From NCBI GenBank assembly GCA_023247275.1, contig JAHFGT010000001.1, positions 6,265 through 70,264 on the forward strand: a stretch of 64,000 nucleotides of DNA. Direction: 5' to 3'. Numbering within the stretch: the stretch's first letter is position 1; the number at the start of each line of letters is the position of its first letter. Below are positions 35,557 to 64,000 of the stretch, piece by piece. Source of the stretch: Candidatus Omnitrophota bacterium. GTDB lineage: Bacteria; Omnitrophota; Gorgyraeia; Aquiviventales; Aquiviventaceae. Both the position numbers and the translations under genes were made by a program. The notes beneath the pieces are model-generated. The model saw only the letters and a program-made list of their open reading frames with translations. It was not told the DNA's origin and did no database searches.

Positions 35557-37469
35557 GCACCCGAAGGGACGACGTCGGTCGTCGGATTGACCGCGAGGAT
35601 CACCTTGAGATGGGTGCGGGCGCGCGCCAGTTGCCAGGCATGTTCAAATGCCTGCATCGGCAGTGTGTGTTGGAGCAACGCCGTGGTGTCGATCGTTGGC
35701 AGCAGGTTAATCGCTTCTTCGAAATCTACGCCAGCGCTTGCCACCGAGCCGATGAGGGTTTTGTCAGATCCTACGATGTCTTCAAAATTGTACGGCCGGC
35801 GGGCATACGGCAACCCGAGCAGCAAGATCGTGGATCCCGGCGCAGATTGGCGCAAGATCCTCTCAAGCGAATCAGGATCTCCGGTTGCCTCAATGATCAC
35901 GCTAACATCGCGAAGCGAATCCAATCCCTGCGCACTCCTCATGTTGGTGGCCGTCAGGAGCCTGAGCCGATCAACGCGCTGATCCACAACGATCACGTGA
36001 TGACCTCGACGCGCCAGCACCTGCGCGACCAGATGCCCGATCGGCCCGGCTCCGATCACCGCGCAGCTCTTCGGTCCACTAGGGCCCCAGGCAGATTCCA
36101 ATCGCCGGAGCCCTTTCAAGACGACAGCGAGCGGTTCGCAGAGTGCGGCGGCTTTTAAACTCACCTGGTCTGGAAGCCGATGGACGCACCGAGCCGGCAC
36201 GATCAGATAGTCGGCATAGCCGCCGTGATGGCCGATGACCCCTACCTCCTGGCGCTCAGGACACTGAACCGTGTCGCCGGCGCGACAGACAGCGCACTCT
36301 CCACAGCCTTGAAGGCACTCGACCACGACCCGATCCCCCTCAGCCCACTCAGTGACCCGAGATCCGCTCGCCGCGATCACCCCAGAGCATTCGTGTCCTG
36401 GCACGACCGGATAGCTGGCTTGTCCTGACCGGTAATAGCCTAACGTCCCGTCGAGGATGTCCAGGTCCGTCGCGCACACACCTTCGTACGCCACCCGGAT
36501 CAACACCTCGCTGGGCTTGAGCAGAGGCAGTTCGAGCTGCTCAAGGCTGGCCTGCCCTGGCCCACGAATCACGACCGCTGGATACGACACGCGAAACAAC
36601 AGCCGGGCCTGCGCCGACTCGTTCGATGCCTGATGCCCGTTCCATAACCCGGTCGCGGTCCCGACAAACTTCTGCCATCGAAACTGTGCGATCTCAGCGC
36701 CTCGGGTCTGGAGGCAACGGCCATGCCACGCATGGGCCAGATCGCCGATCAGATAACGCAGTTCGCGCCAGGCTTCCCCGGTGACATCCCAGGGCTGTTT
36801 CAGCCCGAGCGTCTTGGCCGCCTGCGCCTCTCGGTAATATCGTCGAAACACCTGCGGCCAGGTTTCGCGATGGAGATGGCAGACGCTGGCCGCTGGTTCA
36901 TAGATGACCTGGTACCCTTGCTGCATCCAATGCTTGGCCCATTCGATATCCTCAAGACCTGGCAACCGCTCATCAAACGGATGCTGCTCCCACAGCTCTC
37001 GCCGCAGCGCCGCGTTGGCGTTATTCGCGAAAAACCGCGGAGACGTCAGGACCTGTCGACAGCCTCCAAACGTCCGCCGAAAGTCACGCGCCTCGCCCAG
37101 CTTGGAGTCCTGATGACCTTCCTGCCGCCCATACACCATGGCGGTCTGCTCCTCGCGAAGCGCAGCAATCAGATGTGTCAACCAGTCAGGGCCTGTCGGC
37201 AGCGCATGCGCAGAAACGATGACCAGATACCGACCCTGACTGTTGCGGATTCCGACATTGGCAGAGTAGCCGAAGGTGAAGTCCTGTTGCCGAATCCGTA
37301 CGAGCCGGTCAGCGCGCTCCTGCGCGATGGCGCGCGTGCGGTCGATCGACCCTGAGTCCACGACAATGGTCTCAACATCCTGGTAGGTCTGCGCGGCGAG
37401 TCGGTCGAACAACGCCGGCAAGAGGGCTTCTTCGTTATAGGTGCGGATAATAATCGAGGTCTCAGCCAT
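35553..37469 (-). CDS. Fusion protein: N-terminal family-2 glycosyltransferase plus C-terminal zinc-dependent medium-chain dehydrogenase (MDR/ADH)
   Basis: The first roughly 280 aa are GT2 (MAETSIIIRTYNEEALL...VVDSGSIDRT). They are followed by GVCATDLDILDG...GHECSGVIAASG and the Rossmann motif VIGAGPIGHLVAQV. The maximal ORF extends to 37643. Confidence 0.75.
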   Translation of the reverse strand: MAETSIIIRTYNEEALLPALFDRLAAQTYQDVETIVVDSGSIDRTRAIAQERADRLVRIRQQDFTFGYSANVGIRNSQGRYLVIVSAHALPTGPDWLTHLIAALREEQTAMVYGRQEGHQDSKLGEARDFRRTFGGCRQVLTSPRFFANNANAALRRELWEQHPFDERLPGLEDIEWAKHWMQQGYQVIYEPAASVCHLHRETWPQVFRRYYREAQAAKTLGLKQPWDVTGEAWRELRYLIGDLAHAWHGRCLQTRGAEIAQFRWQKFVGTATGLWNGHQASNESAQARLLFRVSYPAVVIRGPGQASLEQLELPLLKPSEVLIRVAYEGVCATDLDILDGTLGYYRSGQASYPVVPGHECSGVIAASGSRVTEWAEGDRVVVECLQGCGECAVCRAGDTVQCPERQEVGVIGHHGGYADYLIVPARCVHRLPDQVSLKAAALCEPLAVVLKGLRRLESAWGPSGPKSCAVIGAGPIGHLVAQVLARRGHHVIVVDQRVDRLRLLTATNMRSAQGLDSLRDVSVIIEATGDPDSLERILRQSAPGSTILLLGLPYARRPYNFEDIVGSDKTLIGSVASAGVDFEEAINLLPTIDTTALLQHTLPMQAFEHAWQLARARTHLKVILAVNPTTDVVPSGA

Positions 37470-38424
37470 GGGCGGATGTCTGCGCAACCGGTCGGTGTAA
37501 GACGTCCAGCAGATTTCGGATCGTGCGTTCGTGCACCGCAGTCGCGGCTTGGGGGCTGCTGTTCGCGTTGTGCGGAGCCAGCCAACAGTTGGGCAGTCGA
37601 CGGAGCGGGCTGTCCGCCGGCAACGGCTCAACGTCGAACACATCCAACGCCGCGCCGGCGATTCGTCTTTGCTCCAGGGCGCGCACCAACGCGGATTCCT
37701 CTATCACCGGCCCGCGCGAGGTATTCACGATCACAGCGGTCGGTTTCATGCGCGCGAACGCCGACTCGTCCATCAAATGAAACGAGGTGGGGTTCAGTGA
37801 CGGGTTCAGACTGATACAATCGGCCTCGCGCAGGAGCTGGTCACGTGCCACCATCTGGATCCCGGTACTGGCGACAAATGGCTGTGGTAGCTCTACCGGA
37901 TCATGTCCCAACACCCGCATGCCGAACGCGACCGCCCGACGCACCACCGCCTTGCCGCAATTGCCGACGCCGATCACCCCCAATGTGCGCTCCCGCAGCG
38001 AGACGAGTTCCGGCTTGATCCATTGGCCCTCATGCATCTGCGCATTCATCTCGGCCAGCCGACGGGCAAACAGCAGCAGATATCCCATGACCGTATCAGC
38101 CACTGGTTCACTAAACGCGTTCGGCGTATTGCACACTACGATCCCGCGTTGAGCCGCCGCCTCAAGGTCAATCGAATCGATTCCAGTGCCCCACTTTGAG
38201 ATGACCTTCAGCCGTGGTGCAGCCTCCAGCACCTGGCGCGTCAGCCGATCATCCCCGCAGATGATCCCGTCGATATCACCCACCACCGGCAACAATTCAG
38301 CCTCGCTCAGCCGTTCCTGGACGCGCGCGACAATGACCTCGCATCCAGCGGCTTCCAACGCTGCGCGGTACCGGTCAATCACCGATATGGCATACGGAGC
38401 AGAGATCAGCACCCGGTCGCTCAT
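37462..38424 (-). CDS. D-isomer-specific 2-hydroxyacid dehydrogenase family protein
   Basis: GIVVCNTPNAFSEPVADTVMGYLL and the NAD motif TLGVIGVGNCGKAV. Catalytic R/E/H region. Confidence 0.85.
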   Translation of the reverse strand: MSDRVLISAPYAISVIDRYRAALEAAGCEVIVARVQERLSEAELLPVVGDIDGIICGDDRLTRQVLEAAPRLKVISKWGTGIDSIDLEAAAQRGIVVCNTPNAFSEPVADTVMGYLLLFARRLAEMNAQMHEGQWIKPELVSLRERTLGVIGVGNCGKAVVRRAVAFGMRVLGHDPVELPQPFVASTGIQMVARDQLLREADCISLNPSLNPTSFHLMDESAFARMKPTAVIVNTSRGPVIEESALVRALEQRRIAGAALDVFDVEPLPADSPLRRLPNCWLAPHNANSSPQAATAVHERTIRNLLDVLHRPVAQTSAHG

Positions 38425-43202: not shown

Positions 43203-44077
43203 GCCGCTGACTCCGATGGTCTATCGCCCCAACCCGGTGGAGACGCCTCAAGGAGAGCTGGCTGGGCCGACGAGCGCGAGCCAGGGTTCGCGTCTGGCTT
43301 TTCCATCAGCAGCACCACATGGTCCCAGCCGCCCACGCGCGCCTGCCGGCGATACGTTTCCGCGATCACTCGACACCCGAATCGGCGCTGATACCGTTTG
43401 CGCAGATCATGGAAGAACACATCGTCCTCGAACAAGGCCACCCCACCCAGCGCCTCCGGCCTGTAGTTCCATGTCGGCTCCAGATGCAGCACATACCGCG
43501 AGGAGACCCTGAGCACTTCCCGCAGAACGTCAGTCACCCGTGAGGGTGAGACATGTCCGAGGACCATAAAGGTGTACACGAGCTCGAAGGCTCCATCGGC
43601 AAACGGCAAGGAGAACATGTTGCCCTGCACAAAGTTCACCCCGTGCTGCACGAACCCGAGTTCGCGCGCCCCCTGGAGCTGTTCAGGCGCCACATCGATC
43701 CCGGTGAATCGGCTCAGCGGATAGTGTCGCTGAAAAAAGTCCAGGTTCCAGCCCGGCCCGCAGCCGACTTCGAGCCATGATGCCGGGATGATTTTCTCAG
43801 TGCGCAGACCATCCAGCACCAACTGTTGCCGCAAGGCGATTCGCTGCTTCGCTTCAGGATCAGACCATTTCGCCACATAATGCTGAATCGTCCGGTTGGT
43901 GATAAACCGGGGGTCTTGGTACCCTTGGATCCGTTGAGCCTGCACGGTGCTGCGGCCCATCAACCTGCGCAGCAGATACGCCACCCGGTACGGGTGCTCC
44001 AACCCAAAATAGCTGCGCTCCAGGATCCCTTGAACGACCGCTTTGAGTGGACGCCGAAGCACCGCCGGCAGTCTCAT
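43199..44077 (-). CDS. Class I SAM-dependent methyltransferase
   Basis: LEVGCGPGWNLDFFQRHYP...GIDVAPEQL. Confidence 0.75.
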   Translation of the reverse strand: MRLPAVLRRPLKAVVQGILERSYFGLEHPYRVAYLLRRLMGRSTVQAQRIQGYQDPRFITNRTIQHYVAKWSDPEAKQRIALRQQLVLDGLRTEKIIPASWLEVGCGPGWNLDFFQRHYPLSRFTGIDVAPEQLQGARELGFVQHGVNFVQGNMFSLPFADGAFELVYTFMVLGHVSPSRVTDVLREVLRVSSRYVLHLEPTWNYRPEALGGVALFEDDVFFHDLRKRYQRRFGCRVIAETYRRQARVGGWDHVVLLMEKPDANPGSRSSAQPALLEASPPGWGDRPSESAA

Positions 44078-46038
44078 GAGTGCCGCCTGTTGACGACCAG
44101 CTGATCCTGCTGGATCATAGCAACCACCGCGTCTCTGAATCGAGTGATCGCGTGCCCATCGGTAAACGGATCAAACAGCTGTCGGACACGATTCACCACG
44201 GTCGCCGGAATAGCCTCGACGTCTTGGGCGACAGAACCCTCTGACCCTGTTCCGCTGACGACCGGCCGATGCAATGAGGCGATCACCGCGTTGACCAGCG
44301 CCGATTCCTCATCGAACATCAGCCGCCACTGATCGAAAAATTCCGCGGCAAACGGCGCCACCCGAAACTCCGATGGCGTGAACACGTACGAGGGCTTCCC
44401 CAGCAGCAACGCCTCGATCCACACCGAGCCGAACGCCGCGTATTGCCCGGTGGACATGACCGCATCCGCCTGCTGGATTAAGTACTGGGCCGTGCAGGTC
44501 AGCTGCTTGGTGGGATCAAGGATCGCGATCCGTTGCGCCCGCACGCCAGGCTCAAGGATGTCCCAAAAAGGTGGCGTGAACAAAAACCGCGAATGCTCAG
44601 GCCACTCCTCGTTGGCTTTGGGCTTGAGGATGATCCGCAGAGGAACCGGGCGTCGGGCCAGCTCGGCGATCGCCAGCAGGAAGCGACGGTTGCGTTCCAT
44701 CACAAAAACATCAGGCGTATACGAACCGGTAAATGCGGCAAGGATCGTTTCACCAGGCTGTCGATCGACCAGCAGCCGTCGCACCGGTTCGCTGGCAGCC
44801 TGATCGTCCGACATCCTGGAGCTGTCGTTACTCGGCATCCCGATGGCGGTCACCTGCATCCGACGGCTCCAGGTCTGGCCATAGATCGACACCGGAAACC
44901 ACCCTTGGACCGGAAACAGATCGTAGTGCAGGTACGCGGTCTGCGCGCCGGCGGTGGTAAACGCGGTGTACGGCACCCAGGTCGTGCGGCCGCCGGTATG
45001 GTTGAGCACGATCGTTTCAATAATATGGTGGTACGCGTGCTCTTCCGCATTGAGCAACACGCGCAGCGGAGAGTGACGCAGAAACGTCTCCAGCTGGATT
45101 CCGTACCGAACTGCCCCGGTCAGACCACGCCGCAGCGGCGGATGGGGCGACTGACCAGTTCGGCACAGAGCACCGACCAGGCGAGCGAGTCGAGGAATCA
45201 ACCGCAACAAATCGCTCAAGACCATCGGTGGCCCGCACAACCTGGCCCATCGCAGGCCAGCGTGATCATATTCCCGGATGCGTTGAGCTTCAGGACCTTT
45301 TCCCGATATGACCAGCAGGAGATCGCTGCGCTGGACGCGATCCCCATCGGCCAGGAAATCGGCCGAACGCAACTCGTTGGGCCGGCCGGTCACCGTCCAA
45401 TAGTCGTGAAATCCGATCCGAGGTGCCGCACGGTGGCGAACGCGTACACAGAGCCCTTGCCGGACACACTGCGTCAGCACCTGCCACACCAACCCAGCCG
45501 CGACGATTCCATGTCCGATCAGCGGCTGCCACCAGCGCCACGCACTCGGCTGTGATTCCTGCCGACTCTGTATCGCGTGCTGGGGCCAGATTGTTTGACG
45601 CAGTCGCCAGCCATCCAGCAATTTCGCAGACCATGAACTCGTGACAACAAACGTCGCCTGCGTGCACCGCTGTTGACGTGCCTGCTCCAGCGCAGCGTGG
45701 TACAGTGCCACCTGGTCTTGCACCCAGTGACACACGATCTTCCGGCAGACCAAACGCACCTGCGGGTCGCCGTAGAAAAACTGCTGGAACGCCTGCTCGA
45801 GATCAGGTTCGACTAAATCGCGAAACAACGTTTCGGTGAGCTCAACGCTGAGCAATGATGCCGCGGCCAGCCCGGCCCCCATCTGTTCCCGACGCAACAC
45901 TTGCCCAGCCATTCTGGTCCAGCGGTGCCATGGACCGATGGCCGGCCGCAATGCCACCGTCGTTCCGCACGCGCATCGAGAGGCTTCCTGCACGTGGCGG
46001 ATCCGCCCAAGCCGCTGAGGTCGCTCTACAATGATCAC
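44074..46038 (-). CDS. Large hypothetical protein, possibly TagF-like / capsule-type transferase
   Basis: 654 aa. The C-terminal ILKPKANEE...ADAVMSTGQYAAFGSVWIEALLLGKPSYVF loosely resembles the TagF family C-terminus. Confidence 0.3.
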   Translation of the reverse strand: MIIVERPQRLGRIRHVQEASRCACGTTVALRPAIGPWHRWTRMAGQVLRREQMGAGLAAASLLSVELTETLFRDLVEPDLEQAFQQFFYGDPQVRLVCRKIVCHWVQDQVALYHAALEQARQQRCTQATFVVTSSWSAKLLDGWRLRQTIWPQHAIQSRQESQPSAWRWWQPLIGHGIVAAGLVWQVLTQCVRQGLCVRVRHRAAPRIGFHDYWTVTGRPNELRSADFLADGDRVQRSDLLLVISGKGPEAQRIREYDHAGLRWARLCGPPMVLSDLLRLIPRLARLVGALCRTGQSPHPPLRRGLTGAVRYGIQLETFLRHSPLRVLLNAEEHAYHHIIETIVLNHTGGRTTWVPYTAFTTAGAQTAYLHYDLFPVQGWFPVSIYGQTWSRRMQVTAIGMPSNDSSRMSDDQAASEPVRRLLVDRQPGETILAAFTGSYTPDVFVMERNRRFLLAIAELARRPVPLRIILKPKANEEWPEHSRFLFTPPFWDILEPGVRAQRIAILDPTKQLTCTAQYLIQQADAVMSTGQYAAFGSVWIEALLLGKPSYVFTPSEFRVAPFAAEFFDQWRLMFDEESALVNAVIASLHRPVVSGTGSEGSVAQDVEAIPATVVNRVRQLFDPFTDGHAITRFRDAVVAMIQQDQLVVNRRHS

Positions 46039-47297
46039 GATGACCCCTGGGCGAGCAAGCGATCCACTAGCTCCTGTGTCGCGCTGACTGATAATCGATA
46101 CACCCGAATGCGCGCCAACGCGTGCAGTTGCAGAAACTCATCCCTCAGCCGAGCCAATTGCTGGAGATGTTCAACGGTTAAAAACCCGGACAGGAACGCC
46201 TCGCGAATCAGCCCTGGGAACTCTCTAGCTGTCTGTGAGCCCTCCGGAACACCGACCCTCTGGAGTTGGAACCCAGCCCGAATCGCGGCGATCGCTTGAT
46301 ACCCGCGTTTGAGCCTGGCCGCCACACGATCCCCCAACAACCGTTGGGTCCACTGAAACAGACGGGTGCGCCCGGTCGCAACTCCATAAGGAAAATCATC
46401 GCTCAACGCCCGGTTGATCAGCGCCTGCGCGGTCGCCACATCTTCTGCGCAGCTCCACTCGCGCTCGCTGGGACTGGGATCCACCTCAGCGATCACCGCC
46501 AACTGATCGAACGTCAGCAGCCCTGGCGCATACTCGGTGATGGCCACCACGCGAAACCCATGCTGTTCCAGCGTCTGAATCAGGCTGCGGCGAGAATACA
46601 GGATCACGTGCGTCTTGATCATATGCCGTTGATGCAAGAACCCCAGATCCGGCGTTTCCAAATAGATGAGACCGCCCGGGCGCAACACGGTGCGGACCGC
46701 CGCCAGGAACGCGGGCGGGTCGTTAATGTGTTCAAAAAATTGAAAGAACGCGATGATATCAAACGTCGACCCATCCGCCAGGCCGGCCGGAAAATAGTCT
46801 GATACCATTTGCACGCCATACTGCTCGCGCGCCCAGTGCGCGTACCGTGCGTTCGGATCGATCCCCATGGTCTGCCATCCGCGCTGCTGCATGAGCCAGA
46901 GAAACGACCCATCCCTGGCACCAATCTCCAACAGCCGACGACCGGATGGCTCGCGCCCCACCGCCGCCAGCTGTTGCTCAAACCATCGCTGACGATACCG
47001 ATTGCGCTCACGACGATACGCGGTATCTTTGCGCCAGGTTGTGCGATCCATCTGTTGGTACGGCGAGACGTAGACCGTATCAAGCCCGTCATGGTCCTCG
47101 ATGACGCGTTCGGTATGCACCAGCCCGCACCGCGCGCAATGGCCATACACGACCCCAACGCTGGCCGGGACATATTTCGTTGCGACATGCAGCAGCGGCT
47201 GGCGATCAACGCCTCCACAGACCGGGCACCGGGCCCGCGGCATCATCACGATGGCAGGCGCGGTGTGTGGCCGATCAGCCAGCATGACCCGCTCCAA
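46035..47297 (-). CDS. SAM-dependent methyltransferase with N-terminal Cys4 zinc-binding domain and extra C-terminal domain (TylC3-type C-methyltransferase architecture)
   Basis: CPVCGG-x26-CARC. Methyltransferase motif LLEIGARDGSFLWLM. A roughly 150-aa C-terminal extension. Confidence 0.7.
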   Translation of the reverse strand: MERVMLADRPHTAPAIVMMPRARCPVCGGVDRQPLLHVATKYVPASVGVVYGHCARCGLVHTERVIEDHDGLDTVYVSPYQQMDRTTWRKDTAYRRERNRYRQRWFEQQLAAVGREPSGRRLLEIGARDGSFLWLMQQRGWQTMGIDPNARYAHWAREQYGVQMVSDYFPAGLADGSTFDIIAFFQFFEHINDPPAFLAAVRTVLRPGGLIYLETPDLGFLHQRHMIKTHVILYSRRSLIQTLEQHGFRVVAITEYAPGLLTFDQLAVIAEVDPSPSEREWSCAEDVATAQALINRALSDDFPYGVATGRTRLFQWTQRLLGDRVAARLKRGYQAIAAIRAGFQLQRVGVPEGSQTAREFPGLIREAFLSGFLTVEHLQQLARLRDEFLQLHALARIRVYRLSVSATQELVDRLLAQGSS

Positions 47298-49272
47298 CCG
47301 ACGGCTCCATCAGGACACCGTGGGCCTTCTCCAACGTGGCAACCCCCTGTCTCTGCGCAATCGCGCGGAGCGCATGAACAGCTCGTTCGGCTGAGCGTCC
47401 ATCCTGCTGCGCAGTGCCATAGCGACATAGAAATTCGTCATTGATCGGCTCAGGGGCGCGCCAAACCGGCCGGCGCAGCATCGCGTCGATCTCCTGTAAG
47501 AACGCCGGTTGATTCGTTGTCACGATCGCGCGCGCGGATAACAGCTGTTGCGCCTCTGGGTACAGCCGCATGAACCGGGTATCGGCTAAGACGATGATCG
47601 GCTGATCCGTCGTCAGCGCCTGCAGCAGCGTTGTGGCCGGGCTATCGATCAGGATCAGATCCGCGCGAGCCAACAGCTCGGCAAACGGTGGCGTCTGAAC
47701 CAGGCGGCATCGTCGGACCCGGGTCCGGCGCGCCCACGCTGCGAGCGGGTTGGTAAGACGATCTCGCGGATCCAACTTCACGATCAGCTCCACATCGGCA
47801 ACGCGCTCGCACCGCTCCACCACAGCGCGTTGGAGCCGCCAATACCAGATATCTGGGTAGATATGCCGGCTAAAATATCGCCAGTCTCCCATCAGCTCTG
47901 TCGGAACGTATAGGATGGTTCGACGGGCACGCAACCGATGACGAGGACGCTCAACGGGTCCTGGCACTCGACGCCTAGTGCAGAGGCGATCTAAGGCCGC
48001 CGATCCGACTGTGCTAGGCTGCGCTGCCCTCAGAGCATTGGTTCGGACGTGATCCACACCCAATCGCTCCACGGTCTCACGCACGCCATCGCCATAACAC
48101 AGAAAATAGTCGGCCAACTGCAGTTCAGAGAACGGCAGCATCGGGTACTCCAGATAGCCGACAAACCCGCCATGCTGAGCGACCACCGTTGGCACGCCAT
48201 GCTGGCGCGCGACCACCGCGCACGCGACGTCCTCGATCGTCAGGTACGCTGAGCCGAGAATCACCGAGGCCGAAGTCGAAGGCTTCTCCAACAGCCGCGC
48301 GAGCGCTGTCGCAGTGCTGACATGCCGCCCGAGCGCCTCAACCAACAGCGTGCGGGCCGATTGCTCGATCAGCGGCCACAGATCCAGGCCTGCGATGGTG
48401 CATGCGTCCCGGACCGCTTGATCTGTGCGCAGTCGATCCCACAGGCGATCGGTGACGCTAGCCTCTACCGGGGCGATGCCATGCTGAGCCTGGTTGCGAT
48501 GACGCGGCAGACGCATCAACCGTCGGTCGATGATCCCATGTCCTTGGGCAAGCCAAGCGGTTAACACCTCTTCATCTGACCAGTATCCGGTCAGAAGAAT
48601 TCGTACCCCTATGGCACGCGATCCATATCCATGGCGAATTCGCCACCGGGTCCATCGATCCTGATGGGGTCGTCGAAACGCACCGATCACCCGAGACAAC
48701 GCTCTAACCGACCTGGTGATGCGCGTGTCAATTCTGTTCGGCTCTGAGGACGATGGTGGTAGCGCGCACAACGCGATTCCCAGTTGCTGCGTCAGATACG
48801 GCAAGCACTGCATCGTCAAGATCCCGAGGCGAAGATCTGTTGGGACGTGCGCCGGTACGGCGGCCACAATGGTCTGGGGTGTGACCAGTTCGATCGCCGA
48901 TTTCAGCGTATAGGTTCGATGCAGCAGAGCGTCGACAACAATTTTTACGCGATAATAGAGCGACTGCAACGAAAACCCTGCCAACGTAGCCGGTTCTACG
49001 CAAGCCTGAAGATGAGAATCGACCGCGGCGCACAGCTGTTCAGTTTTTCGGAAGTTATCATGTCCTAACGCCAACAAGGCGTCCTCGTCGTAGCAGTCCT
49101 CGATGGTTCGGTATGTCAAGCCCTGACGCGTTGCCGCTTCGTCAGCAGCCGGTGTGAGCGCAACTAAGCTCAGCGGCCGACCCTGGTGTTGGCTCCAGAC
49201 CAGGAGCTGTTGGAGTTCGTCTGGGGTGGCGAACAGCCCCATCGTCGTGTGCGCGGTCCTGTTCATTACCAA
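47275..49272 (-). CDS. Large TagF-like (CDP-glycerol glycerophosphotransferase family) protein, tentative
   Basis: 665 aa. ILYVPTE...IVKLDPRD...ADLILIDSPATTLLQALTTDQPIIVL parallels the TagF motifs. Confidence 0.35.
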   Translation of the reverse strand: MVMNRTAHTTMGLFATPDELQQLLVWSQHQGRPLSLVALTPAADEAATRQGLTYRTIEDCYDEDALLALGHDNFRKTEQLCAAVDSHLQACVEPATLAGFSLQSLYYRVKIVVDALLHRTYTLKSAIELVTPQTIVAAVPAHVPTDLRLGILTMQCLPYLTQQLGIALCALPPSSSEPNRIDTRITRSVRALSRVIGAFRRPHQDRWTRWRIRHGYGSRAIGVRILLTGYWSDEEVLTAWLAQGHGIIDRRLMRLPRHRNQAQHGIAPVEASVTDRLWDRLRTDQAVRDACTIAGLDLWPLIEQSARTLLVEALGRHVSTATALARLLEKPSTSASVILGSAYLTIEDVACAVVARQHGVPTVVAQHGGFVGYLEYPMLPFSELQLADYFLCYGDGVRETVERLGVDHVRTNALRAAQPSTVGSAALDRLCTRRRVPGPVERPRHRLRARRTILYVPTELMGDWRYFSRHIYPDIWYWRLQRAVVERCERVADVELIVKLDPRDRLTNPLAAWARRTRVRRCRLVQTPPFAELLARADLILIDSPATTLLQALTTDQPIIVLADTRFMRLYPEAQQLLSARAIVTTNQPAFLQEIDAMLRRPVWRAPEPINDEFLCRYGTAQQDGRSAERAVHALRAIAQRQGVATLEKAHGVLMEPSVGAGHAG

Positions 49273-54152: not shown

Positions 54153-54956
54153 TTAGACAGCCGGATGTTCTACACAGGCCTGCACCCCAGATCCTGAGTT
54201 GGCAACCCGTCGGCATTCTGCGTCATACCATCGGATGATGTCAGTGATGTGAAAGCTGGGGTTCTTCGGGTAGAGCGTGTCATACAGGCTTGCCATGAAC
54301 GCATACTCGGCGCGCGTGTTGACATCGAGTACCAGGTCTGGTCGGCGGAATGCTCCTGGACACGCCACGGTACCGATGCGATAGCGCATCGGATCCGCCG
54401 GGCGCTGGCGAGCATAGTCGAAGAAATTCAGATGCGGATGCTCTCGACGCTCAGGATCCGTGCAGGCGCGCCACACCTCTTCCAAGGTTGTGAGATGAAA
54501 CACTTCGGCGCCGATTCCATTCGGATACCCATTGCCGTAGACCTCGGCCAGATTAGAGGAGAAGTGACTGGATCCTGAAAGATGGGCTGTAATGATCCGA
54601 TCGATTTCCGTTGGTTCAGGCACTGGGTTGTCGGCAGGCAGCCGCGCGATGACATCTGCGCCGCAGCTTCGCGCTGCCTGAACATATCGATCGACCACAT
54701 CATGCTCTGATCCTCGGAACACCCGCACACCCTCAGCAGACGCGAGGTGCGCTAGCACGTCATCCTCTGAGTGCGTGGTCGTGGCGACGACAAGCTCATG
54801 CACCCATTGGCATCGCTTGACCCGCTCCAGCAGCCGCGCCAGCAATGGGCGGCCAGCGAGCGGCAACATCGATTTCCCCGGCAGTCGCAAAGATCCCATG
54901 CGAGCCTGCATGATCAACGCCACACGCGGGCGGGTCGGCAACTTAGTCAACGGCAT
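54153..54956 (-). CDS. Cytidylyltransferase (SpsF / acylneuraminate cytidylyltransferase-like, CTP_transf_3)
   Basis: RVALIMQARMGSLRLPGKSMLPLAGRPLL...VVATT. The maximal ORF extends to 55175. Confidence 0.7.
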   Translation of the reverse strand: MPLTKLPTRPRVALIMQARMGSLRLPGKSMLPLAGRPLLARLLERVKRCQWVHELVVATTTHSEDDVLAHLASAEGVRVFRGSEHDVVDRYVQAARSCGADVIARLPADNPVPEPTEIDRIITAHLSGSSHFSSNLAEVYGNGYPNGIGAEVFHLTTLEEVWRACTDPERREHPHLNFFDYARQRPADPMRYRIGTVACPGAFRRPDLVLDVNTRAEYAFMASLYDTLYPKNPSFHITDIIRWYDAECRRVANSGSGVQACVEHPAV

Positions 54957-55929
54957 GATCTGCGACTTGGCCGAGCCGATCCCCAGGTCCCCAGTATCGG
55001 AGTTTCTTGGCATTGGCTGCTTCAGCCGGCGTGACCCGCTTGACCCCATCCCCCATGACCAGCGGGATGGTTCTGACGTAACTGGTGAGCATTTCCAGTC
55101 CGCGCTTTTCCAGCGAGGCGGCTTGATCGCTGCCATACATCGCCCGGTCCAGCGTGATGTGCCGCTCGACCGCAACCGCCCCCATCATCGCGGCCAGCAC
55201 CCCTGGGACCATCGTCACTTCATGGCCGCTATAGCCGACCGGGCAGCCGTAGCGGCGGCGCAGCTCGACGAGACAGCGCAGGTTCAGCGCCTGTTCCTGG
55301 GCCGGGTACTCTGAGAGGCAGTGCATCAGCACAAACGGACAGTCGTGCCGGCGAAACACCTCGACCGCGGCATCGATCTGGTCATACCCGCTCATGCCGG
55401 TCGAAATAAAGGTTGGCTTGCGCTCTTGCGCCACGTACTCCACCAGTTCGCGATGCGTCAACAGTGGCGACGCGATCTTGTTGTAGGCGAGGTCATACGA
55501 TCGAAGAAACTCCTGGCTCGGGACATCCCACGCCGATGCAAACCAGGCGATCCCGATCGAGCGGCAATAGGCGTCGATCTGATCGTACTGCGCTCGGCCG
55601 AACTCTAGCGCCTCTTTTTGGGCGCGCTGGGTCGTGCCCCATGGGCTGGCGCGCGGCGAGTCCAGAAACTCCTTGGTATAGACTATGGACACTGTGCGTT
55701 TCTGAAATTTGACCGCATCGCAGCCAGCGTCTTTGGCCATCCGAATCAGTTGCTTGGCGATTGACACATCGCCGTTATGGTTGATGCCGATCTCCGCAAT
55801 CACGGCGACATGACGGGCAATGGGCCAGGGGTTTGATTGGATCAGCGTTGTGGCGAACGCAAACCGGTCGTCCACGGCCGGCGGCGGCGAGGTCAACACC
55901 GTCGCTGGAGCGCTGGAGAGCGGGTTCAT
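54943..55929 (-). CDS. NeuB-family nonulosonic/octulosonic acid synthase (sialic acid synthase / SpsE-like)
   Basis: IAEIGINHNGDVSIAKQLIRMAKDAGCDAVKFQ, ISTGMS, HCLSEYP, GYSGHE. 328 aa. A C-terminal SAF domain appears to be absent or short. Confidence 0.85.
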   Translation of the reverse strand: MNPLSSAPATVLTSPPPAVDDRFAFATTLIQSNPWPIARHVAVIAEIGINHNGDVSIAKQLIRMAKDAGCDAVKFQKRTVSIVYTKEFLDSPRASPWGTTQRAQKEALEFGRAQYDQIDAYCRSIGIAWFASAWDVPSQEFLRSYDLAYNKIASPLLTHRELVEYVAQERKPTFISTGMSGYDQIDAAVEVFRRHDCPFVLMHCLSEYPAQEQALNLRCLVELRRRYGCPVGYSGHEVTMVPGVLAAMMGAVAVERHITLDRAMYGSDQAASLEKRGLEMLTSYVRTIPLVMGDGVKRVTPAEAANAKKLRYWGPGDRLGQVADHAVD

Positions 55930-57829: not shown

Positions 57830-58114
57830 ATGCCCACACCCAAGCCCACCACGATCCCAGCCGTGAAGGCGCGTGTGCGCTTCGGGGAAATTATGAAACG
57901 CGCCGCGCTGCAGCGAGAGCGCTTTATCGTTGAAAAATCCGGGTTGCCGGTGGTGGCTATCATCAACGCGACCGAGTATCTCACCTGGGTCCAAGAGCGC
58001 GAGGAGCGCTTTCACATCTTAGACCGCGTGAAAGGCCATCTCCCACGCGTCGCTCCTCAAGAGGTTGAACGCGACGTCCAGCGAGCCGTTCGTGCCATCA
58101 AGCTTCGTGATTAA
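57830..58114 (+). CDS. Type II antitoxin, Phd/YefM family
   Basis: 94 aa. RFIVEKSGLPVVAIINATEYLTW matches the Phd/YefM core. An AAGGAG RBS lies 9 nt upstream. Overlaps the PIN gene. Confidence 0.65.
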   Translation: MPTPKPTTIPAVKARVRFGEIMKRAALQRERFIVEKSGLPVVAIINATEYLTWVQEREERFHILDRVKGHLPRVAPQEVERDVQRAVRAIKLRD

Positions 58115-58523
58115 GGCTGTTCTCGATACCAACCAGTTCGTCAGTAGCCTGCTGACCCGAACAGGACCATCCGCCAAACTCCTCGAGGAGTGGCGAGCCC
58201 ATGCGCATCTGCTCGTCACCTCTCAAGAGATTCTCGCAGAGATCGAACGGGTGCTTCAGCATCCGCACATCGCCAAGAAGTATCGCATCACGGAAGCTGA
58301 CGTGACGGCCCTGATCGAGCTGCTGGAACACGAAGCCGTCGTCTTGCCCCAGACACAGCGTATCGACGTCATCACCGATGATCCCACCGATAACAAGATC
58401 CTGGCCTACGCGATCGACGCCCGAGCGCCGTACATCGTCTCCGGCGATCAACGCCTGCTGCGCCAGTACCACGGAATCGCCATCGTCACCGCCTGCGAAT
58501 TCCTCGCCGTCCTTCATCAGTAG
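58065..58523 (+). CDS. PIN-domain toxin (VapC-like ribonuclease)
   Basis: VLDTNQFVSSLL (first Asp), then conserved E and DDPTDNKILAYAIDA...VSGD acidic residues. The likely true start is the GTG at about 58107, overlapping the antitoxin stop (GTGATTAA). Confidence 0.75.
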   Translation: MNATSSEPFVPSSFVIKAVLDTNQFVSSLLTRTGPSAKLLEEWRAHAHLLVTSQEILAEIERVLQHPHIAKKYRITEADVTALIELLEHEAVVLPQTQRIDVITDDPTDNKILAYAIDARAPYIVSGDQRLLRQYHGIAIVTACEFLAVLHQ

Positions 58524-59763: not shown

Positions 59764-59794
59764 GACCGTCACTTCAAGGGCCGAAGTGACGGTC
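59764..59794 (-). terminator. Perfect 12-bp stem / 7-nt loop hairpin immediately after the methyltransferase stop codon
   Basis: GACCGTCACTTC-AAGGGCC-GAAGTGACGGTC. The stop codon (59793-59795) lies in the right arm. A third copy of GTCACTTC follows. There is no strong U-tract. Confidence 0.5.
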
Positions 59795-60587
59795 ACTTCG
59801 CGAGCGCCCATACGGGATTCTCCTGTGGGGATCGCGTCATCTCTGCTGGAGGGGTCGCGACCACGACGTACCGCCAACAGCACCAGCGGCCCAGCTGCAG
59901 CCTTAGGATCAGTTTGGACAGCAGCGTGTCGAGCGCTAGGACGAGTTGCTCAACCGCGCGAGCGTTCGGCACCAGCTCTGGGCCGATATACCCGCCGCTC
60001 AATGGCAATGCGATCACGTCCCGATACTCGACGCGCTCAATCGTCCATCCAGACCGATGCAACATGCGGCGCGCCTCATCCATCGGGAGGGCTTCACACG
60101 ATTCATGCCCCACTAACCGACGCGCCACGCGCAGCGCAGGCATCATGTTGGACTCGAACACGATCACTCGTCCACGAGTCAGCCGGGCCGCCTCAGCAAG
60201 CGCGCGATCAGATTCCAGGTGGTGCAGGCTGTCGCGGAACACTACCGTATCGAACGATTGGTCTGCGAACGGCAGCCGGTACGCATCGCCGACCACTACC
60301 GGGATGTCGCCTAGCACTTCCCTACCGGCCTGCAACCCTGCTTGGTCCATATCAACGCCGATCGCTGTCAGGCCGTGCGCACGCAACGAGCTGACCAATG
60401 CGCCATAACCGCAGCCGATCTCGAGCACTCGTGGCCCCTTGACCAGCGTGCGCAACTGCGCGTCCTGACACGCCACGACCCGGCCCCAGAACCGCTGAAG
60501 CCTTGCCGCGAGCTGCCGGTGTTCGGCCAGGCTCTGCGGACGTTGGTCACGATGCGCAGGGTGCGGGCGCGTGGGCGCGTGAGCCAT
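59793..60587 (-). CDS. Class I SAM-dependent methyltransferase
   Basis: RVLEIGCGYGALVSSLRAHGLTAIGVDMD. The maximal ORF extends to 60788. Confidence 0.75.
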   Translation of the reverse strand: MAHAPTRPHPAHRDQRPQSLAEHRQLAARLQRFWGRVVACQDAQLRTLVKGPRVLEIGCGYGALVSSLRAHGLTAIGVDMDQAGLQAGREVLGDIPVVVGDAYRLPFADQSFDTVVFRDSLHHLESDRALAEAARLTRGRVIVFESNMMPALRVARRLVGHESCEALPMDEARRMLHRSGWTIERVEYRDVIALPLSGGYIGPELVPNARAVEQLVLALDTLLSKLILRLQLGRWCCWRYVVVATPPAEMTRSPQENPVWALAK

Positions 60588-61539
60588 CAGATATCTCGTG
60601 CTGCCATGCGGAATCCCGATGCGCCGTTGCCAGCGCGCATGAGGTGACAAACAGATGGCTCTGAGCCAACTGCTCGAACATGCTCTTGAACAGCGCCAGC
60701 TTGCGTGCCACCGGCAACCGGATGCCGGGATGATGGTTGAGCCGAGGATCGATCTGATCCTGATCCGGCCCGAGGACGTCGACCGCATGCATCACAAACA
60801 CGATGTCTTCTGACCGCAGTTGCCGGAGCGCTGCGGCCGCGTACGCTGATCCCCAACTCAGGACTGCCGTGCCATAGAACGGCAACCGCGACATCGGCAG
60901 CGTCGCCACCGGGAGCTCTACCAGCGGTCTGGCCGGATCGACTCGCCACAACGACTGCGCCGCGGGACGGTATGGCTGTCGGGGCGCGCGCAGGAAACTC
61001 AGCCGACCCATCGTGCCATGCTCAGCCTGGCGACGCAGCCGGGTCCATATCTGCATCAACCGGATCGGGATGGATAGTGTCGTCGGAAACACCGAGGAAT
61101 CGTACCAGTAGCCGCGCGATTCCAACAAGGCTAACAACGGCTCGTCAACATCATACCCAGGATTACGAAACCCTACCGGCCGGTTTCCGGTCCAGGACAC
61201 GATCGCCTGCTCAGCGGCGATGAGTTCCTGCTCTTGCGCCTGAGGCGACCACCGGGTCATCCCATACGGATGCGTGTGGCTGTGGTTAGCGATCTCATGG
61301 CCGGCAGTAATCAGCTCGCGCAGCCACCGACCAGCCGACCCGCGCACCTCTGAGCCGACGACGAACACGGTCGCGCGGATCTTATGCTCGTTGAACAGCT
61401 CGATCAGCCGAGGAATCACCAGGTCGTAAAACGGCTCTGGTGCGTCGTCGGATGGATAGCCATAGTACCGCAGCAGCGTCGCAAATGAATCCATATCGAC
61501 CTGCACCGCGCACTGAGGCCGAACCGCACCAGCGGTCAT
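60547..61539 (-). CDS. Polysaccharide deacetylase-like (CE4) protein
   Basis: RATVFVVGSEV...GHEIANHSHTHP... Confidence 0.7.
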   Translation of the reverse strand: MTAGAVRPQCAVQVDMDSFATLLRYYGYPSDDAPEPFYDLVIPRLIELFNEHKIRATVFVVGSEVRGSAGRWLRELITAGHEIANHSHTHPYGMTRWSPQAQEQELIAAEQAIVSWTGNRPVGFRNPGYDVDEPLLALLESRGYWYDSSVFPTTLSIPIRLMQIWTRLRRQAEHGTMGRLSFLRAPRQPYRPAAQSLWRVDPARPLVELPVATLPMSRLPFYGTAVLSWGSAYAAAALRQLRSEDIVFVMHAVDVLGPDQDQIDPRLNHHPGIRLPVARKLALFKSMFEQLAQSHLFVTSCALATAHRDSAWQHEISDGSRAHAPAPCAS

Positions 61540-62207
61540 GTGGACTCCAGGTCTCGGACATACACAACCGAGTCGCCACCGAAGATTCGGATCGGCCCGG
61601 CCGGCGCAAATCCAAGATTGCGATAAAAGATGTTGGCCATCAGATTGTCAGCCCGGACCAACGCCCGCACCTGCTTGCCACGGTGGTCGCGCAGACAGTC
61701 AAGCGCGGCCTGACCCAGCGCCTGCGCGACCCGGATATTGGTGCGCTGCATGAACTGCAGCGACCGGTAGGCCGGGGCCACCGCCAGCGACAACATCTCG
61801 CTGGGCGCATCGTCTGGCATGGCCGGGGGATGGCTCAGGAAGGCGACCGCCTCACCGACAGCGCCCCATCGACTCGGCTTGAGAATCACCGTTGCGAGGA
61901 ACACGCCGACCAGCGCACCCCAATGGCGGCGGGCGACGGATTGGAACAAATGCGCCCAGTCGGTCGTCGCCGCGATGAACCCGGCCACCTGTCCGTCGTA
62001 CTCATACACCACACAGCAGGCCGTTGGCGATTCCGGAATGTAGCGATAGTAGAACCGCGCGAGAAACTCCTCTCCGAGCCGGGCGAGGATTCCTTCGCGC
62101 AACTCGTCGGCATGCAGCCGGGCTACGGCCGGAATATCCTCCGCGCGCAACGAACGGACGCATCCAACGCTCACGCGCGGCTGGTCAATGGATGCCACGA
62201 TCAGCAA
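61536..62207 (-). CDS. GNAT-family N-acyltransferase
   Basis: 223 aa with a GNAT core (VVYEYDGQVAGFIAAT...LAVAPAYRSLQ). Confidence 0.7.
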   Translation of the reverse strand: MLIVASIDQPRVSVGCVRSLRAEDIPAVARLHADELREGILARLGEEFLARFYYRYIPESPTACCVVYEYDGQVAGFIAATTDWAHLFQSVARRHWGALVGVFLATVILKPSRWGAVGEAVAFLSHPPAMPDDAPSEMLSLAVAPAYRSLQFMQRTNIRVAQALGQAALDCLRDHRGKQVRALVRADNLMANIFYRNLGFAPAGPIRIFGGDSVVYVRDLEST

Positions 62208-62424
62208 GGATCTCCTTAATCGCGCGGACGCTGACCATCTGCGACCACTCTTCCACGGTAAACTTCACACCGAACTGGAGCTCCAGCTCAGTGATCAGCG
62301 CCAAATGACCCAACGAATCCCACAGCGCCACCGTGCCTGGGGCAGCCTCGTCCGGGAGCTGCTCCACGTTGAACGCCTTGCAAAAAATCGCCTGCAGCCG
62401 CTCATCCGTCGTGACAGCCATCAC
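62185..62424 (-). CDS. Acyl carrier protein (phosphopantetheine-binding)
   Basis: 79 aa. The WDSLGHLALI motif is the canonical DSL serine attachment site. Confidence 0.8.
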   Translation of the reverse strand: MMAVTTDERLQAIFCKAFNVEQLPDEAAPGTVALWDSLGHLALITELELQFGVKFTVEEWSQMVSVRAIKEILADRGIH

Positions 62425-64000
62425 GCGATCGCCTCCACCGCAGCGTCGACTCGAATCAGTGGTTCCTCAGGCCATGGCCGGGCCAGATCGCGTTGCCACC
62501 GGATCGTTTCGCCCTTTTGTCCGGCCGGTTCAAACCCAGCCTGGGCAAACAATCCCTTGACCACGTGATTTTTTGCTGTCGGCGCATAGCGGCCGACCAA
62601 CACTGAGCCACCGGCTGCTTGCGCGGCTTGGCACAATGCGCCAAGAAACGCGAACTCGATCCGCCGACCCATCACCCGGCAGCTCATCAGCAGCGTGTCC
62701 AGCTCCCAGACGTCTGCCATCATCCGCACAATCGCCACACCAACCAGCCCAGCATCACCAAACCGATCCTGCACGCGAAGTGTGTACACACGCGCGGTTG
62801 AAGACTCGAGCAGGTCCTGGATGTCTCGCTGTTGATATCGCCGTGTGGTCAGATTGAACTGGTTCGTCTTCTGCGTCAGCTGCGCCACACGAGCCACCTC
62901 TGCGGGTTGCATACGCTGCACGCTGATGACGATCTCCAGTGACTTCAAGTAGTCTTCCAGCGTACATGTCTGGGCCTGGGTCTGTTGCCGAGCCTGTTCT
63001 GCCGCATACAGCTCAGCGCGGCGCTGATCCTCTTCTGTGGTCTGCAACCGCTCGAAATCGGTGAGCGAGCTCAGCGCGCTGGCATATTCCAATGGATCCG
63101 TCGGCCAGTCAGGGGTCAACACTTGTGGCAACAGGTGGCGCATCAGCTCGCGCTCAAACGGCTGGTCGTCGATGAAGACCAGGCTATCCAAGCCAAGGTT
63201 CAACTCTGCAGCCAGCGCCTGCATGTTGGTCGCCTTGTCCTGCCAATTGATCCGCATCGCGGCAACATGGTGTTCGCGCAGCACCATACCTGGGTGGCTG
63301 CGCAAGACGGCGAGCGCATCGGCCGGGTTGTTCTTACTGTTAATCGCCAACAGGATCCCCCGCGCTCGTAGGTCCAAGAGCGCCCGCTGGAACGCCACAT
63401 AGCCGGTGCCTGGTCCATCGTCGCCGAGGACCAGCGCGTCCGGCCCGTCCTCGCCTACGACCCCTCCCCAGAGGGTGTTGTCAAGGTCCACCACCACGCA
63501 TTTTCTGGTCAAACCTTTGTAGGCTTTGACGAACGCGAGCATCGCCCGAGCAAGGTGCCGCATGAACTCAGGGGCCCAGGGAATCTGCGCGACCGACTTC
63601 AGCCGCTCATCGCACATGCGCTGTTTGCCGAAAAAGGCGGCGAGCCGGTCCAGGTCGAGCACGCGCAGTTGCGGGTGCTGGGCACACCGCGTCGCCAGCA
63701 TGGCGTTGAGCTGTGTGGTCAGCGTCGCGGCCGGTGATGGATCAAGTCGGTACGGCTCATCGCTGGGCACGACAAGATTATGCCAGATGAGCAACCCCTT
63801 ACTGTGCCGAGTAAACGCGTCGCTCAGCTCATTGATCCGGGTGATGAGTGGTTCGCTCGCTGATCCGTCCGATGCGCCAGCCACGATCCCAGCCGCCGCT
63901 GCCGCGACCACCACCAGTTCAGGGGCGAAAGCGTACAGGCGCCCATTGGCATCGAGCAGCTCAGATTGAAATTGATTGTAGCCGCCGCACCAGATGTCGA
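62421..64000 (-). CDS. FkbH-like protein (HAD-IIIC phosphatase domain + C-terminal GNAT-like domain); N-terminus beyond window edge
   Basis: VVVDLDNTLWGGVVGEDG...ILLAINSKNN...LVFIDDQPFERE is the HAD-IIIC / FkbH signature. The reading frame continues open upstream of the listed Met to position 64000 (..DIWCGGYNQFQSELLDANGRLYAFAPELVVVAAAAAG..). Confidence 0.7.
   Translation of the reverse strand, partial: DIWCGGYNQFQSELLDANGRLYAFAPELVVVAAAAAGIVAGASDGSASEPLITRINELSDAFTRHSKGLLIWHNLVVPSDEPYRLDPSPAATLTTQLNAMLATRCAQHPQLRVLDLDRLAAFFGKQRMCDERLKSVAQIPWAPEFMRHLARAMLAFVKAYKGLTRKCVVVDLDNTLWGGVVGEDGPDALVLGDDGPGTGYVAFQRALLDLRARGILLAINSKNNPADALAVLRSHPGMVLREHHVAAMRINWQDKATNMQALAAELNLGLDSLVFIDDQPFERELMRHLLPQVLTPDWPTDPLEYASALSSLTDFERLQTTEEDQRRAELYAAEQARQQTQAQTCTLEDYLKSLEIVISVQRMQPAEVARVAQLTQKTNQFNLTTRRYQQRDIQDLLESSTARVYTLRVQDRFGDAGLVGVAIVRMMADVWELDTLLMSCRVMGRRIEFAFLGALCQAAQAAGGSVLVGRYAPTAKNHVVKGLFAQAGFEPAGQKGETIRWQRDLARPWPEEPLIRVDAAVEAIA

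Follow-up and report, generated by a model that had tools for sequence, protein, structure and literature searches.

We analysed a 64,000-nucleotide stretch of a Candidatus Omnitrophota contig (JAHFGT010000001.1, assembly GCA_023247275.1), called the window below, which is one long run of minus-strand genes with a small cassette of enzyme genes at its high-coordinate end. The cassette as seen in the window opens with a gene for an FkbH-like protein (62421 to beyond 64000), followed on the same strand by genes for a 78-residue acyl carrier protein (ACP; 62185..62421), a 223-residue GNAT-family acyltransferase (61536..62207), a 330-residue CE4-family polysaccharide deacetylase of the D-x-D subtype (60547..61539) and a 264-residue class I S-adenosylmethionine (SAM)-dependent methyltransferase (59793..60587). 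The TGA stop codon of the FkbH-like gene and the ATG of the ACP gene have one base in common, at 62421. The GNAT gene starts 23 nt within the ACP gene, with an alternative GTG start 10 nt past it; the GNAT and CE4 genes overlap in an ATGA at 61539-61536; and the methyltransferase ATG, at 60587, lies 41 nt within the CE4 gene. The junctions from the FkbH-like gene to the methyltransferase gene are translational couplings. The initial annotation of this DNA had described the first four of these open reading frames (ORFs) as a coupled module, a description that the coordinates, family scores and junctions bear out.

The same annotation had placed the module at the upstream end of its cluster, and that end proved to be an artefact of the window edge. 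The FkbH-like ORF runs past position 64000, with residues 78-602 of the complete 602-residue protein (P0001) inside the window and a start that would fall at 64229. A second contig, L001, is 99.5% identical to window positions 60011..64000 and continues with further co-directional genes upstream of the FkbH-like gene, encoding a fusion of a MaoC dehydratase with a FabG-like short-chain dehydrogenase/reductase (SDR) and a PMT_2 glycosyltransferase. The MaoC-SDR fusion ends 6 nt ahead of the FkbH-like start. Catalytic motifs are intact in both of its domains (G-D-W-N-P-L-H in the first; TGxxxGIG and YxxxK in the second), and the best matches of the SDR part are 3-oxoacyl-ACP reductases. The gene order reads (PMT_2) - MaoC/SDR - FkbH-like - ACP - GNAT - CE4 - methyltransferase; the module is larger than the four genes first noted and does not lie at the end of the cluster.

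The FkbH-like protein scored 308.2 bits against TIGR01686 (cutoff 146.65), covering model positions 2-320 of 323, and 64.7 bits against the HAD-IIIC model TIGR01681 (cutoff 35.75), so that a profile search upholds the family assignment made from the letters alone. The full-length protein also matches PF21211 (FkbH_N), giving three domains: FkbH_N, a HAD-IIIC phosphatase and a C-terminal GNAT-fold transferase domain with Cys517. Across 22 aligned homologues, D248 and D250, which belong to the HAD DxDxT motif (D248-L-D250-N-T252), are invariant, and the further HAD motifs S298, K332 and D354-D355 are invariant or nearly so. Two cysteines are likewise invariant: C244, just ahead of the HAD nucleophile, and C517, which lies in the sequence L-L-M-S-C-R-V and is part of an invariant S516-C517-R518. 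Both are also kept in ZmaN, a 359-aa FkbH homologue from the zwittermicin cluster of a Bacillus thuringiensis plasmid that aligns over residues 243-587 at 29% identity (E 4e-40). The DxDxT motif is thus retained, and C244 and C517 are the two candidates for the cysteine that would carry the acyl group.

An AlphaFold (AF2) model of the FkbH-like protein has a pLDDT of 87.6. In Foldseek searches the first two domains (N-terminal and HAD) matched 3SLR, the N-terminal part of Bacteroides BF1531, with a TM of 0.84, and the last ~160 residues matched GNAT-fold acetyltransferases. This C-terminal domain contains an invariant C517-R518-x-x-G521, which we take to be placed where GNATs carry the Q/R-x-x-G pantetheine-pyrophosphate motif. 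The two-domain architecture of ~360 residues, as in OzmB (366 aa) and ZmaN, is not matched, the protein having 602 residues with an added FkbH_N; its sequence assigns it to a long subfamily within the FkbH family.

On its own, the 78-residue protein gave no Pfam PP-binding match. A profile of 21 orthologues that adjoin FkbH-like genes matched solved ACPs (2LML at E 1.4e-18; Escherichia coli AcpP at ~1e-12), and 20 of the 21 members match PF00550; we count the protein as an ACP because the profile of its family matches ACPs. The predicted phosphopantetheine-attachment serine is Ser36 in W-D-S-L, and W35-D36-S37, numbered from the GTG start, is invariant in the family alignment. None of the AcpP equivalog models matched the protein, and its sole NCBIfam match was PRK06508, at 16.7 bits against a cutoff of 83. 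Across the 80 loci kept for neighbourhood counts, ACP relatives adjoin FkbH-like genes in 74, nearly always directly downstream, and in five loci phosphopantetheinyl transferase genes lie one or two genes beyond the ACP. The failure to match any AcpP model and the frequent company of FkbH-like genes argue against the ordinary fatty-acid ACP and agree with the initial annotation, which had taken this protein for a dedicated one; we class it as the dedicated carrier partner of the FkbH-like protein. A role for the latter as a mere sugar-phosphate phosphatase was rejected in view of the invariant cysteine/GNAT-fold domain and the near-universal adjacent ACP.

The GNAT scored 32.1 bits against PF00583 (cutoff 20.7). 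Only three homologues were found, at 53-54% identity, and the one whose surroundings could be read, in locus L089, sits in the same ACP-GNAT-CE4-methyltransferase order; the window GNAT is also 27% identical to the GNAT of a Phycisphaerales locus (L004). We propose that it is the putative transferase of an ACP-borne acyl group to a sugar amine, the only hint of this being its adjacency to the ACP. The CE4 protein scored 66.9 bits against PF01522 (cutoff 23.1) and has the Asp-His-His metal site, with motif residues D15-x-D17 and H86-S-H-T-H90. Its best solved relative is the peptidoglycan deacetylase 3QBU (E 1.4e-12), which its D-x-D (rather than D-D) form presumably resembles. Against the NodB model TIGR04243 it reached 42.3 bits, below the cutoff of 240, and by this score it would be like NodB in action at most, and not a NodB. 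The methyltransferase, with 66.8 bits against PF08241, is proposed to O-methylate the acyl group.

This gene order recurs in other genomes. In L089, an independent metagenome contig, FkbH, ACP, GNAT, CE4 and methyltransferase genes are collinear with the window at 54-61% identity (FkbH 61%, GNAT 54%, CE4 59%, methyltransferase 57%), and because the collinearity stops right past the methyltransferase, we regard FkbH-ACP-GNAT-CE4-methyltransferase as a conserved unit. The order FkbH-ACP-GNAT-CE4 is found again in L044 (Bryobacteraceae) and L064 (Paludibaculum), with a MaoC-SDR fusion directly upstream in both, and in L030 and L060 (Phycisphaerae), with no adjacent MaoC or SDR; in L044 a UDP-GlcNAc 2-epimerase gene comes next and NeuB is nearby. 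The succession of GNAT and CE4 after the FkbH-ACP pair thus extends to other phyla. The window CE4 shares 30% identity with its positional counterpart in L030 and has no detectable sequence similarity to that of L044, so the GNAT-CE4 pairing was seemingly assembled more than once, which suggests that CE4 proteins were recruited independently in the L044 and window cassettes.

Over the wider family, the constant core is FkbH and ACP, and the tailoring enzymes and transferases vary. An exhaustive search returned 14,612 representatives of 50%-identity clusters (6,715 at E <= 1e-30), and a scan of one genome per species turned up relatives in at least 595 bacterial and archaeal species, among them Acidobacteriota, Planctomycetota, Verrucomicrobiota, Thaumarchaeota, Asgard-type archaea and candidate phyla. 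Some relatives lie inside megasynthases of 2.5-5.7 kaa. MaoC and/or SDR genes occur within 6 kb in 22 of the 80 loci. The first gene past the ACP, counted in 71 loci, is a MaoC gene in 11, matches the Acetyltransf_1 GNAT model in 7, and encodes a ~380-aa (370-440 aa) protein with weak GNAT matches in 20 (L014, L020-L023, L029, L032, L034, L038, L040, L042-L044, L059, L064, L068, L069, L072, L078 and L081); the last two groups overlap in at least one locus (L044). No solved sequence relative of the ~380-aa family was found. A relationship to the window GNAT or to a FemAB-like protein of the window was rejected (hhalign probability 0.1 for both), and a probable relationship links the family to the long two-domain GNATs of L030 and L060 (hhalign probability 69%).

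The initial annotation had called such a module unusual inside a polysaccharide locus. Genomically this is wrong, given how many species and clusters contain relatives and where the close ones lie. All seven close relatives whose surroundings were read lie among sugar-pathway genes, five of them in amino-sugar or nonulosonic-acid loci, and most of the closest FkbH relatives (46-51% identity) are beside NeuB, DegT or CTP_transf_3 genes. Four of these closest relatives share a cassette of MaoC - methyltransferase - ACP - FkbH - Antibiotic_NAT - DUF4910/DUF2172 protein - ~690-aa protein, in which the DUF4910/DUF2172 protein has 427-433 aa and weak aminopeptidase matches and the ~690-aa protein has no Pfam matches. 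NeuB, DegT, CTP_transf_3 and GFO_IDH genes adjoin this cassette, which lies beside NeuB in L084 (6394-14126), L085 (779-8971) and L086 (6265-14784). No Antibiotic_NAT, DUF4910/DUF2172 or ~690-aa protein was found in the window by tblastn.

Several further arrangements were seen around FkbH-ACP pairs. A glyoxalase/VOC-fold protein is encoded directly ahead of the pair in L087 (6606-9002) and L088 (6603-9005), and the L087 pair is surrounded by bacillosamine-type genes (hexapeptide acyltransferase, Bac_transf, DegT, Polysacc_synt_2). On pSymB of Sinorhizobium meliloti (L083, 5276-10311), genes for an MBOAT protein, an annotated TonB-dependent receptor, an ACP and a 628-aa FkbH-like 'HAD family hydrolase' adjoin the rkpR capsule export genes, an arrangement reminiscent of D-alanylation (DltB/DltC). 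In the thaumarchaeal loci L011, L013, L061 and L065 a CE4 gene is on the opposite strand just upstream of FkbH-ACP, and in L013 and L061 a stand-alone MaoC gene then follows, so the FkbH/ACP/CE4/MaoC association reaches ammonia-oxidising archaea.

The rest of the window agrees with a sugar setting. It encodes NeuB (54943..55929), two CMP-sugar cytidylyltransferases, class IV and DegT-type aminotransferases, several SDRs, at least seven methyltransferases, an ATP-binding cassette (ABC) exporter, a radical-SAM/SPASM protein, a Wzy_C protein, two family 9 glycosyltransferases (GT9), many GT2 and GT4 proteins and a WecA/MraY-type initiating transferase, and the locus ends at priA (4337..6334). From this gene content we identify the window as a nonulosonic-acid-containing surface glycan locus. 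The Pfam scan of the window left out ORFs 2051-2971, 6365-7204, 7173-7949 and 9797-10597.

Taken together, these observations make it somewhat more probable than its opposite, in our judgement, that the genes are the core of a carrier-protein-dependent acyl-tailoring cassette in a nonulosonic-acid glycan locus, one that places a glycerate-derived acyl group onto an amino sugar. The substrate, the precise acyl group, the sugar acceptor and the sequence of CE4 and GNAT action are all inferred. In our scheme, the FkbH-like enzyme would take 1,3-bisphosphoglycerate (1,3-BPG) from glycolysis to form a phosphoglyceryl thioester on a cysteine, its HAD domain would remove the phosphate, and its C-terminal GNAT-fold domain would pass the glyceryl unit to the phosphopantetheine arm of the adjacent ACP. 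We propose this mechanism because the protein is homologous to OzmB-type enzymes and the residues are present. OzmB converts 1,3-BPG to phosphoglyceryl-S-enzyme, then glyceryl-S-enzyme, then glyceryl-ACP (PMC9057759), and a glycerate-activating FkbH and ACP have been reconstituted for tetronates (PMC4979870).

The MaoC-SDR fusion may then reshape the ACP-bound C3 unit. One route would be dehydration to a pyruvoyl or 2-hydroxyacryloyl group, dehydration of a 2,3-dihydroxyacyl thioester giving the enol of a pyruvoyl thioester, with a lactyl group as the product of a subsequent reduction; O-methylation of a hydroxyl by the methyltransferase may give a methoxy acid. On the sugar side, the CE4 protein would de-N-acetylate a sugar belonging to the glycan or to its precursor, and the GNAT would move the ACP-borne acyl group to the amine so exposed. 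For these last two steps gene order and recurrence are the only support, and they would follow the logic of NodB/NodA-NodF and LpxC/LpxD. Given the upstream MaoC-SDR fusion and the co-conserved methyltransferase, a tailored acyl group (dehydrated, reduced or O-methylated) is more probable than plain glyceroyl. In the initial annotation, glyceryl-ACP was to be transferred to an amino sugar as such; the core of that idea is strengthened by the FkbH motifs, the dedicated ACP and the recurrent gene order, and its plain glyceroyl product is disfavoured by the two candidate tailoring enzymes.

Several observations weigh against this reading. The MaoC-SDR fusion and the PMT_2 gene were read from the nearly identical contig L001, not from the window itself. 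In the window GNAT the first glycine of the Q-x-x-G motif is an asparagine, whereas it is glycine in the three homologues, and relatives of this type of GNAT are rare near FkbH genes (2 of 80 loci by phmmer). CE4 genes lie within 6 kb of FkbH in only ~11-13 of the 80 loci, and with two other CE4 genes in the locus the cassette enzyme could act on the polymer independently. The FkbH-like protein carries an extra 240-aa N-terminal domain (PF21211) that is absent from OzmB and ZmaN, and use of 1,3-BPG by the ~600-aa FkbH subfamily is an extrapolation at 29% sequence identity. FabG-type reductases, moreover, normally act on 3-keto, not 2-keto, groups, and the lactyl route is accordingly only one option.

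Several of these points bear on alternative explanations, of which the one that fares best keeps the loading step and drops the tailoring: glyceryl-ACP would be used as made by the GNAT, with the MaoC-SDR fusion and the methyltransferase serving other steps of glycan synthesis. The FkbH, ACP, GNAT, CE4 order without adjacent MaoC or SDR genes in L030 and L060 is what this would predict, and N-glyceroyl pseudaminic acid exists in Tannerella forsythia (PMC5378307). We nonetheless judge it unlikely. The fusion lies only 6 nt upstream of FkbH on L001 and immediately precedes it in L044 and L064. Among the tailoring partners of FkbH-ACP in the loci surveyed, MaoC is the most frequent (the 22 of 80 with MaoC and/or SDR), and in L089 the methyltransferase is collinear with the cassette.

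A second possibility is that the acyl group goes to a hydroxyl, as an ester, or to an amine made by an aminotransferase, the CE4 protein being an independent polymer deacetylase uncoupled from the GNAT. PseH/LegH-type N-acetyltransferases do acylate aminotransferase-made amines without a deacetylase (PMC5378307), class IV and DegT-type aminotransferases are encoded in the locus alongside two further CE4 proteins, and most FkbH-ACP loci are without a CE4 gene nearby. An ester finds a parallel in S. meliloti, where FkbH-ACP is paired with an MBOAT; MBOATs typically make esters. The arrangement of the genes speaks for coupling: GNAT and CE4 overlap in the window and are adjacent in L089, L030, L044, L060 and L064, and the dissimilarity of the L044 and window CE4 proteins means that the pairing was probably assembled more than once. 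A second pair of a FemAB-family protein and a CE4 protein in the window follows the same logic. We consider the uncoupled or ester-forming alternative a little less probable again than use of plain glyceroyl.

That second pair consists of a FemAB/Acetyltransf_6 protein (29798..30889) followed directly by a CE4 protein (29016..29867), both on the minus strand. A third CE4 gene lies at 9090..9848, also on the minus strand, so that two of the three CE4 genes in the locus are paired with an acyl- or aminoacyl-transferase. The pair hints that a deacetylate-then-reacylate step is used twice in the locus.

It is also conceivable, at a considerably lower probability, that the long FkbH subfamily loads some phosphorylated acid other than 1,3-BPG and that the MaoC-SDR fusion does ordinary 3-hydroxyacyl chemistry. 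The low identity to the characterised type, the extra N-terminal domain without an assigned function and the 3-oxoacyl-ACP reductase matches of the SDR part would all suit such a role, and amino sugars commonly carry short hydroxyacyl amides such as 3-hydroxybutyryl. Every HAD and Cys residue common to ZmaN is conserved, however, and a scan of ~50-57 ORFs (from the window, with the full FkbH-like protein and the two upstream proteins of L001) revealed no ketosynthase, acyltransferase or AMP-ligase, which leaves no evident route to a chain of C4 or longer. We attach almost no weight to a cassette that makes a diffusible metabolite or lipid with an incidental position in a glycan locus: polyketide and tetronate pathways are where FkbH domains are most familiar, and some relatives sit in megasynthases, but the search of the window gave no polyketide synthase (PKS), nonribosomal peptide synthetase (NRPS) or FabH-like genes, translational coupling joins the cassette to glycan genes on either side, and the close relatives are, seven out of seven, among sugar-pathway genes.

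Our preferred reading, acyl tailoring of an amino sugar by way of a carrier protein, draws on elements of several known systems. With the FkbH, OzmB and ZmaN proteins of methoxymalonyl-, hydroxymalonyl- and tetronate-type polyketide pathways, the window shares the TIGR01686 domain, DxDxT, the cysteines and an adjacent dedicated ACP, and the C3 unit probably comes from glycolysis here too. The window protein differs in the added 240-aa FkbH_N. FkbK/FkbI-type dehydrogenases, FabH-like condensing enzymes and PKS are absent; the FkbH-like protein is accompanied by a hot-dog dehydratase/SDR fusion, a GNAT, a CE4 protein and a methyltransferase in a glycan locus, and the product is presumably a sugar amide rather than a polyketide unit. 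A parallel to the tailoring step lies in PKS loading modules. Bryostatin BryA reportedly has the order DH-KR-FkbH-ACP, with a proposed D-lactate starter. The combination of a dehydratase with a reductase or a methyltransferase on an FkbH-loaded ACP is common to these modules and the cassette, which differs from them in using separate proteins of other families (MaoC hot-dog, FabG-type SDR) and in an output that would go to a glycan. The OocJ loading module has the order DH-MT-FkbH-ACP (PMC4552970).

The remaining steps have counterparts in Nod-factor and lipid A synthesis. In Nod-factor synthesis the CE4 de-N-acetylase NodB acts first and NodA then acts with acyl-NodF; in lipid A synthesis LpxC is followed by LpxD with acyl-ACP. 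As in both, an N-acetyl group would be removed from a sugar and the amine re-acylated from an acyl carrier protein, but here the donor would be a C3 hydroxy-acid, the transferase a GNAT rather than NodA or LpxD, and the loader an FkbH-like enzyme rather than a fatty-acid synthase.

The flagellin glycosylation locus of Campylobacter jejuni 11168 is similar in setting: it has an FkbH-domain gene in a nonulosonic-acid locus with methyltransferases nearby, and its sugar carries a glycerate-derived, O-methylated acyl group. Strain 11168 makes di-O-methylglyceric-acid derivatives of pseudaminic acid (PMC3068675) and carries the fkbH-domain gene cj1302, which is a pseudogene in strain 12664, a strain without dimethylglyceric-acid pseudaminic acid glycans (PMC7099621). 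Strain 12661 also lacks dimethylglyceric-acid glycans yet keeps cj1302, which tells against the parallel, and the cj1302 link is a correlation (PMC7099621). Cj1295 is required for dimethylglyceric-acid pseudaminic acid in the flagellin glycosylation of strain 11168, and the DUF4910/DUF2172 aminopeptidase-like proteins beside the closest FkbH relatives of the window fit Cj1295, a likeness drawn from its published description only. The window itself, unlike the C. jejuni locus, has no Cj1295-like or Antibiotic_NAT gene by tblastn, and has a GNAT and a CE4 protein instead. A search with the BF1531 fragment (3SLR) gave matches of 360-400 aa, many of them partial, with no Tannerella entry visible among them.

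Other features of the window lie apart from the cassette. Relatives of a D-2-hydroxyacid dehydrogenase (37462..38424) occur in L039, L044 and L068, three FkbH loci that likewise contain NeuB. Two unusual fusions are encoded on the minus strand, a GT2 glycosyltransferase with a zinc alcohol dehydrogenase (35553..37643) and a methyltransferase with a DegT-type aminotransferase (30814..33009). Three minus-strand ORFs of 620-665 aa (47275..49272, 44074..46038 and 33691..35556) have no Pfam match at E <= 1e-5, at most one hydrophobic segment each and no mutual similarity; the protein of ORF 44074..46038 marginally resembles the ~690-aa protein encoded with the FkbH cassette of L085 (25% over 194 aa, E 0.001). 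On the plus strand, two small overlapping ORFs (57830..58114 and 58065..58523) lie between minus-strand glycosyltransferase genes. Going by translation only, the pair looks like an antitoxin and a PIN-domain toxin, with a D-T-N motif in the second, and it would seem to be an insertion within the glycan locus.

Knowledge of the enzymes that modify nonulosonic acids "is scarce" (PMC5378307), and for Pse5Am7Gra of T. forsythia the candidate gene for the glyceroyl group "remains elusive" (PMC6120980). Of the 8 million papers searched, a single one brings up FkbH and glycans together, in passing, and no biochemical study of the cassette pattern was found. The cassette would combine known FkbH/ACP loading with deacetylate-and-reacylate logic in a widespread, apparently uncharacterised arrangement. 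More tentatively, and at somewhat less than even probability, we suggest that FkbH-like/ACP cassettes are a general route by which nonulosonic acids and other amino sugars of bacteria and archaea acquire glycerate-derived acyl groups. Such a route may divert a glycolytic intermediate through a carrier protein into glycan tailoring and may yield glyceroyl, dimethylglyceroyl, lactyl or pyruvoyl-type groups. It may draw on an exchangeable set of tailoring enzymes (MaoC, SDR, methyltransferase, glyoxalase-fold) and an equally exchangeable set of transferases (GNAT, Antibiotic_NAT, hexapeptide, MBOAT, Cj1295-like), and the window version may add a built-in swap of N-acetyl for N-acyl through its CE4 and GNAT proteins.

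The acyl groups of nonulosonic acids and amino sugars shape the recognition of surface glycans by phages, antibodies and host receptors. The comparative pattern offers a concrete candidate for the origin of glyceroyl-type groups on nonulosonic acids, and few proteins would be needed to test it. It suggests that carrier-protein chemistry of the polyketide type is routinely used in glycan tailoring, in at least 595 species that include Thaumarchaeota and Asgard-type archaea.

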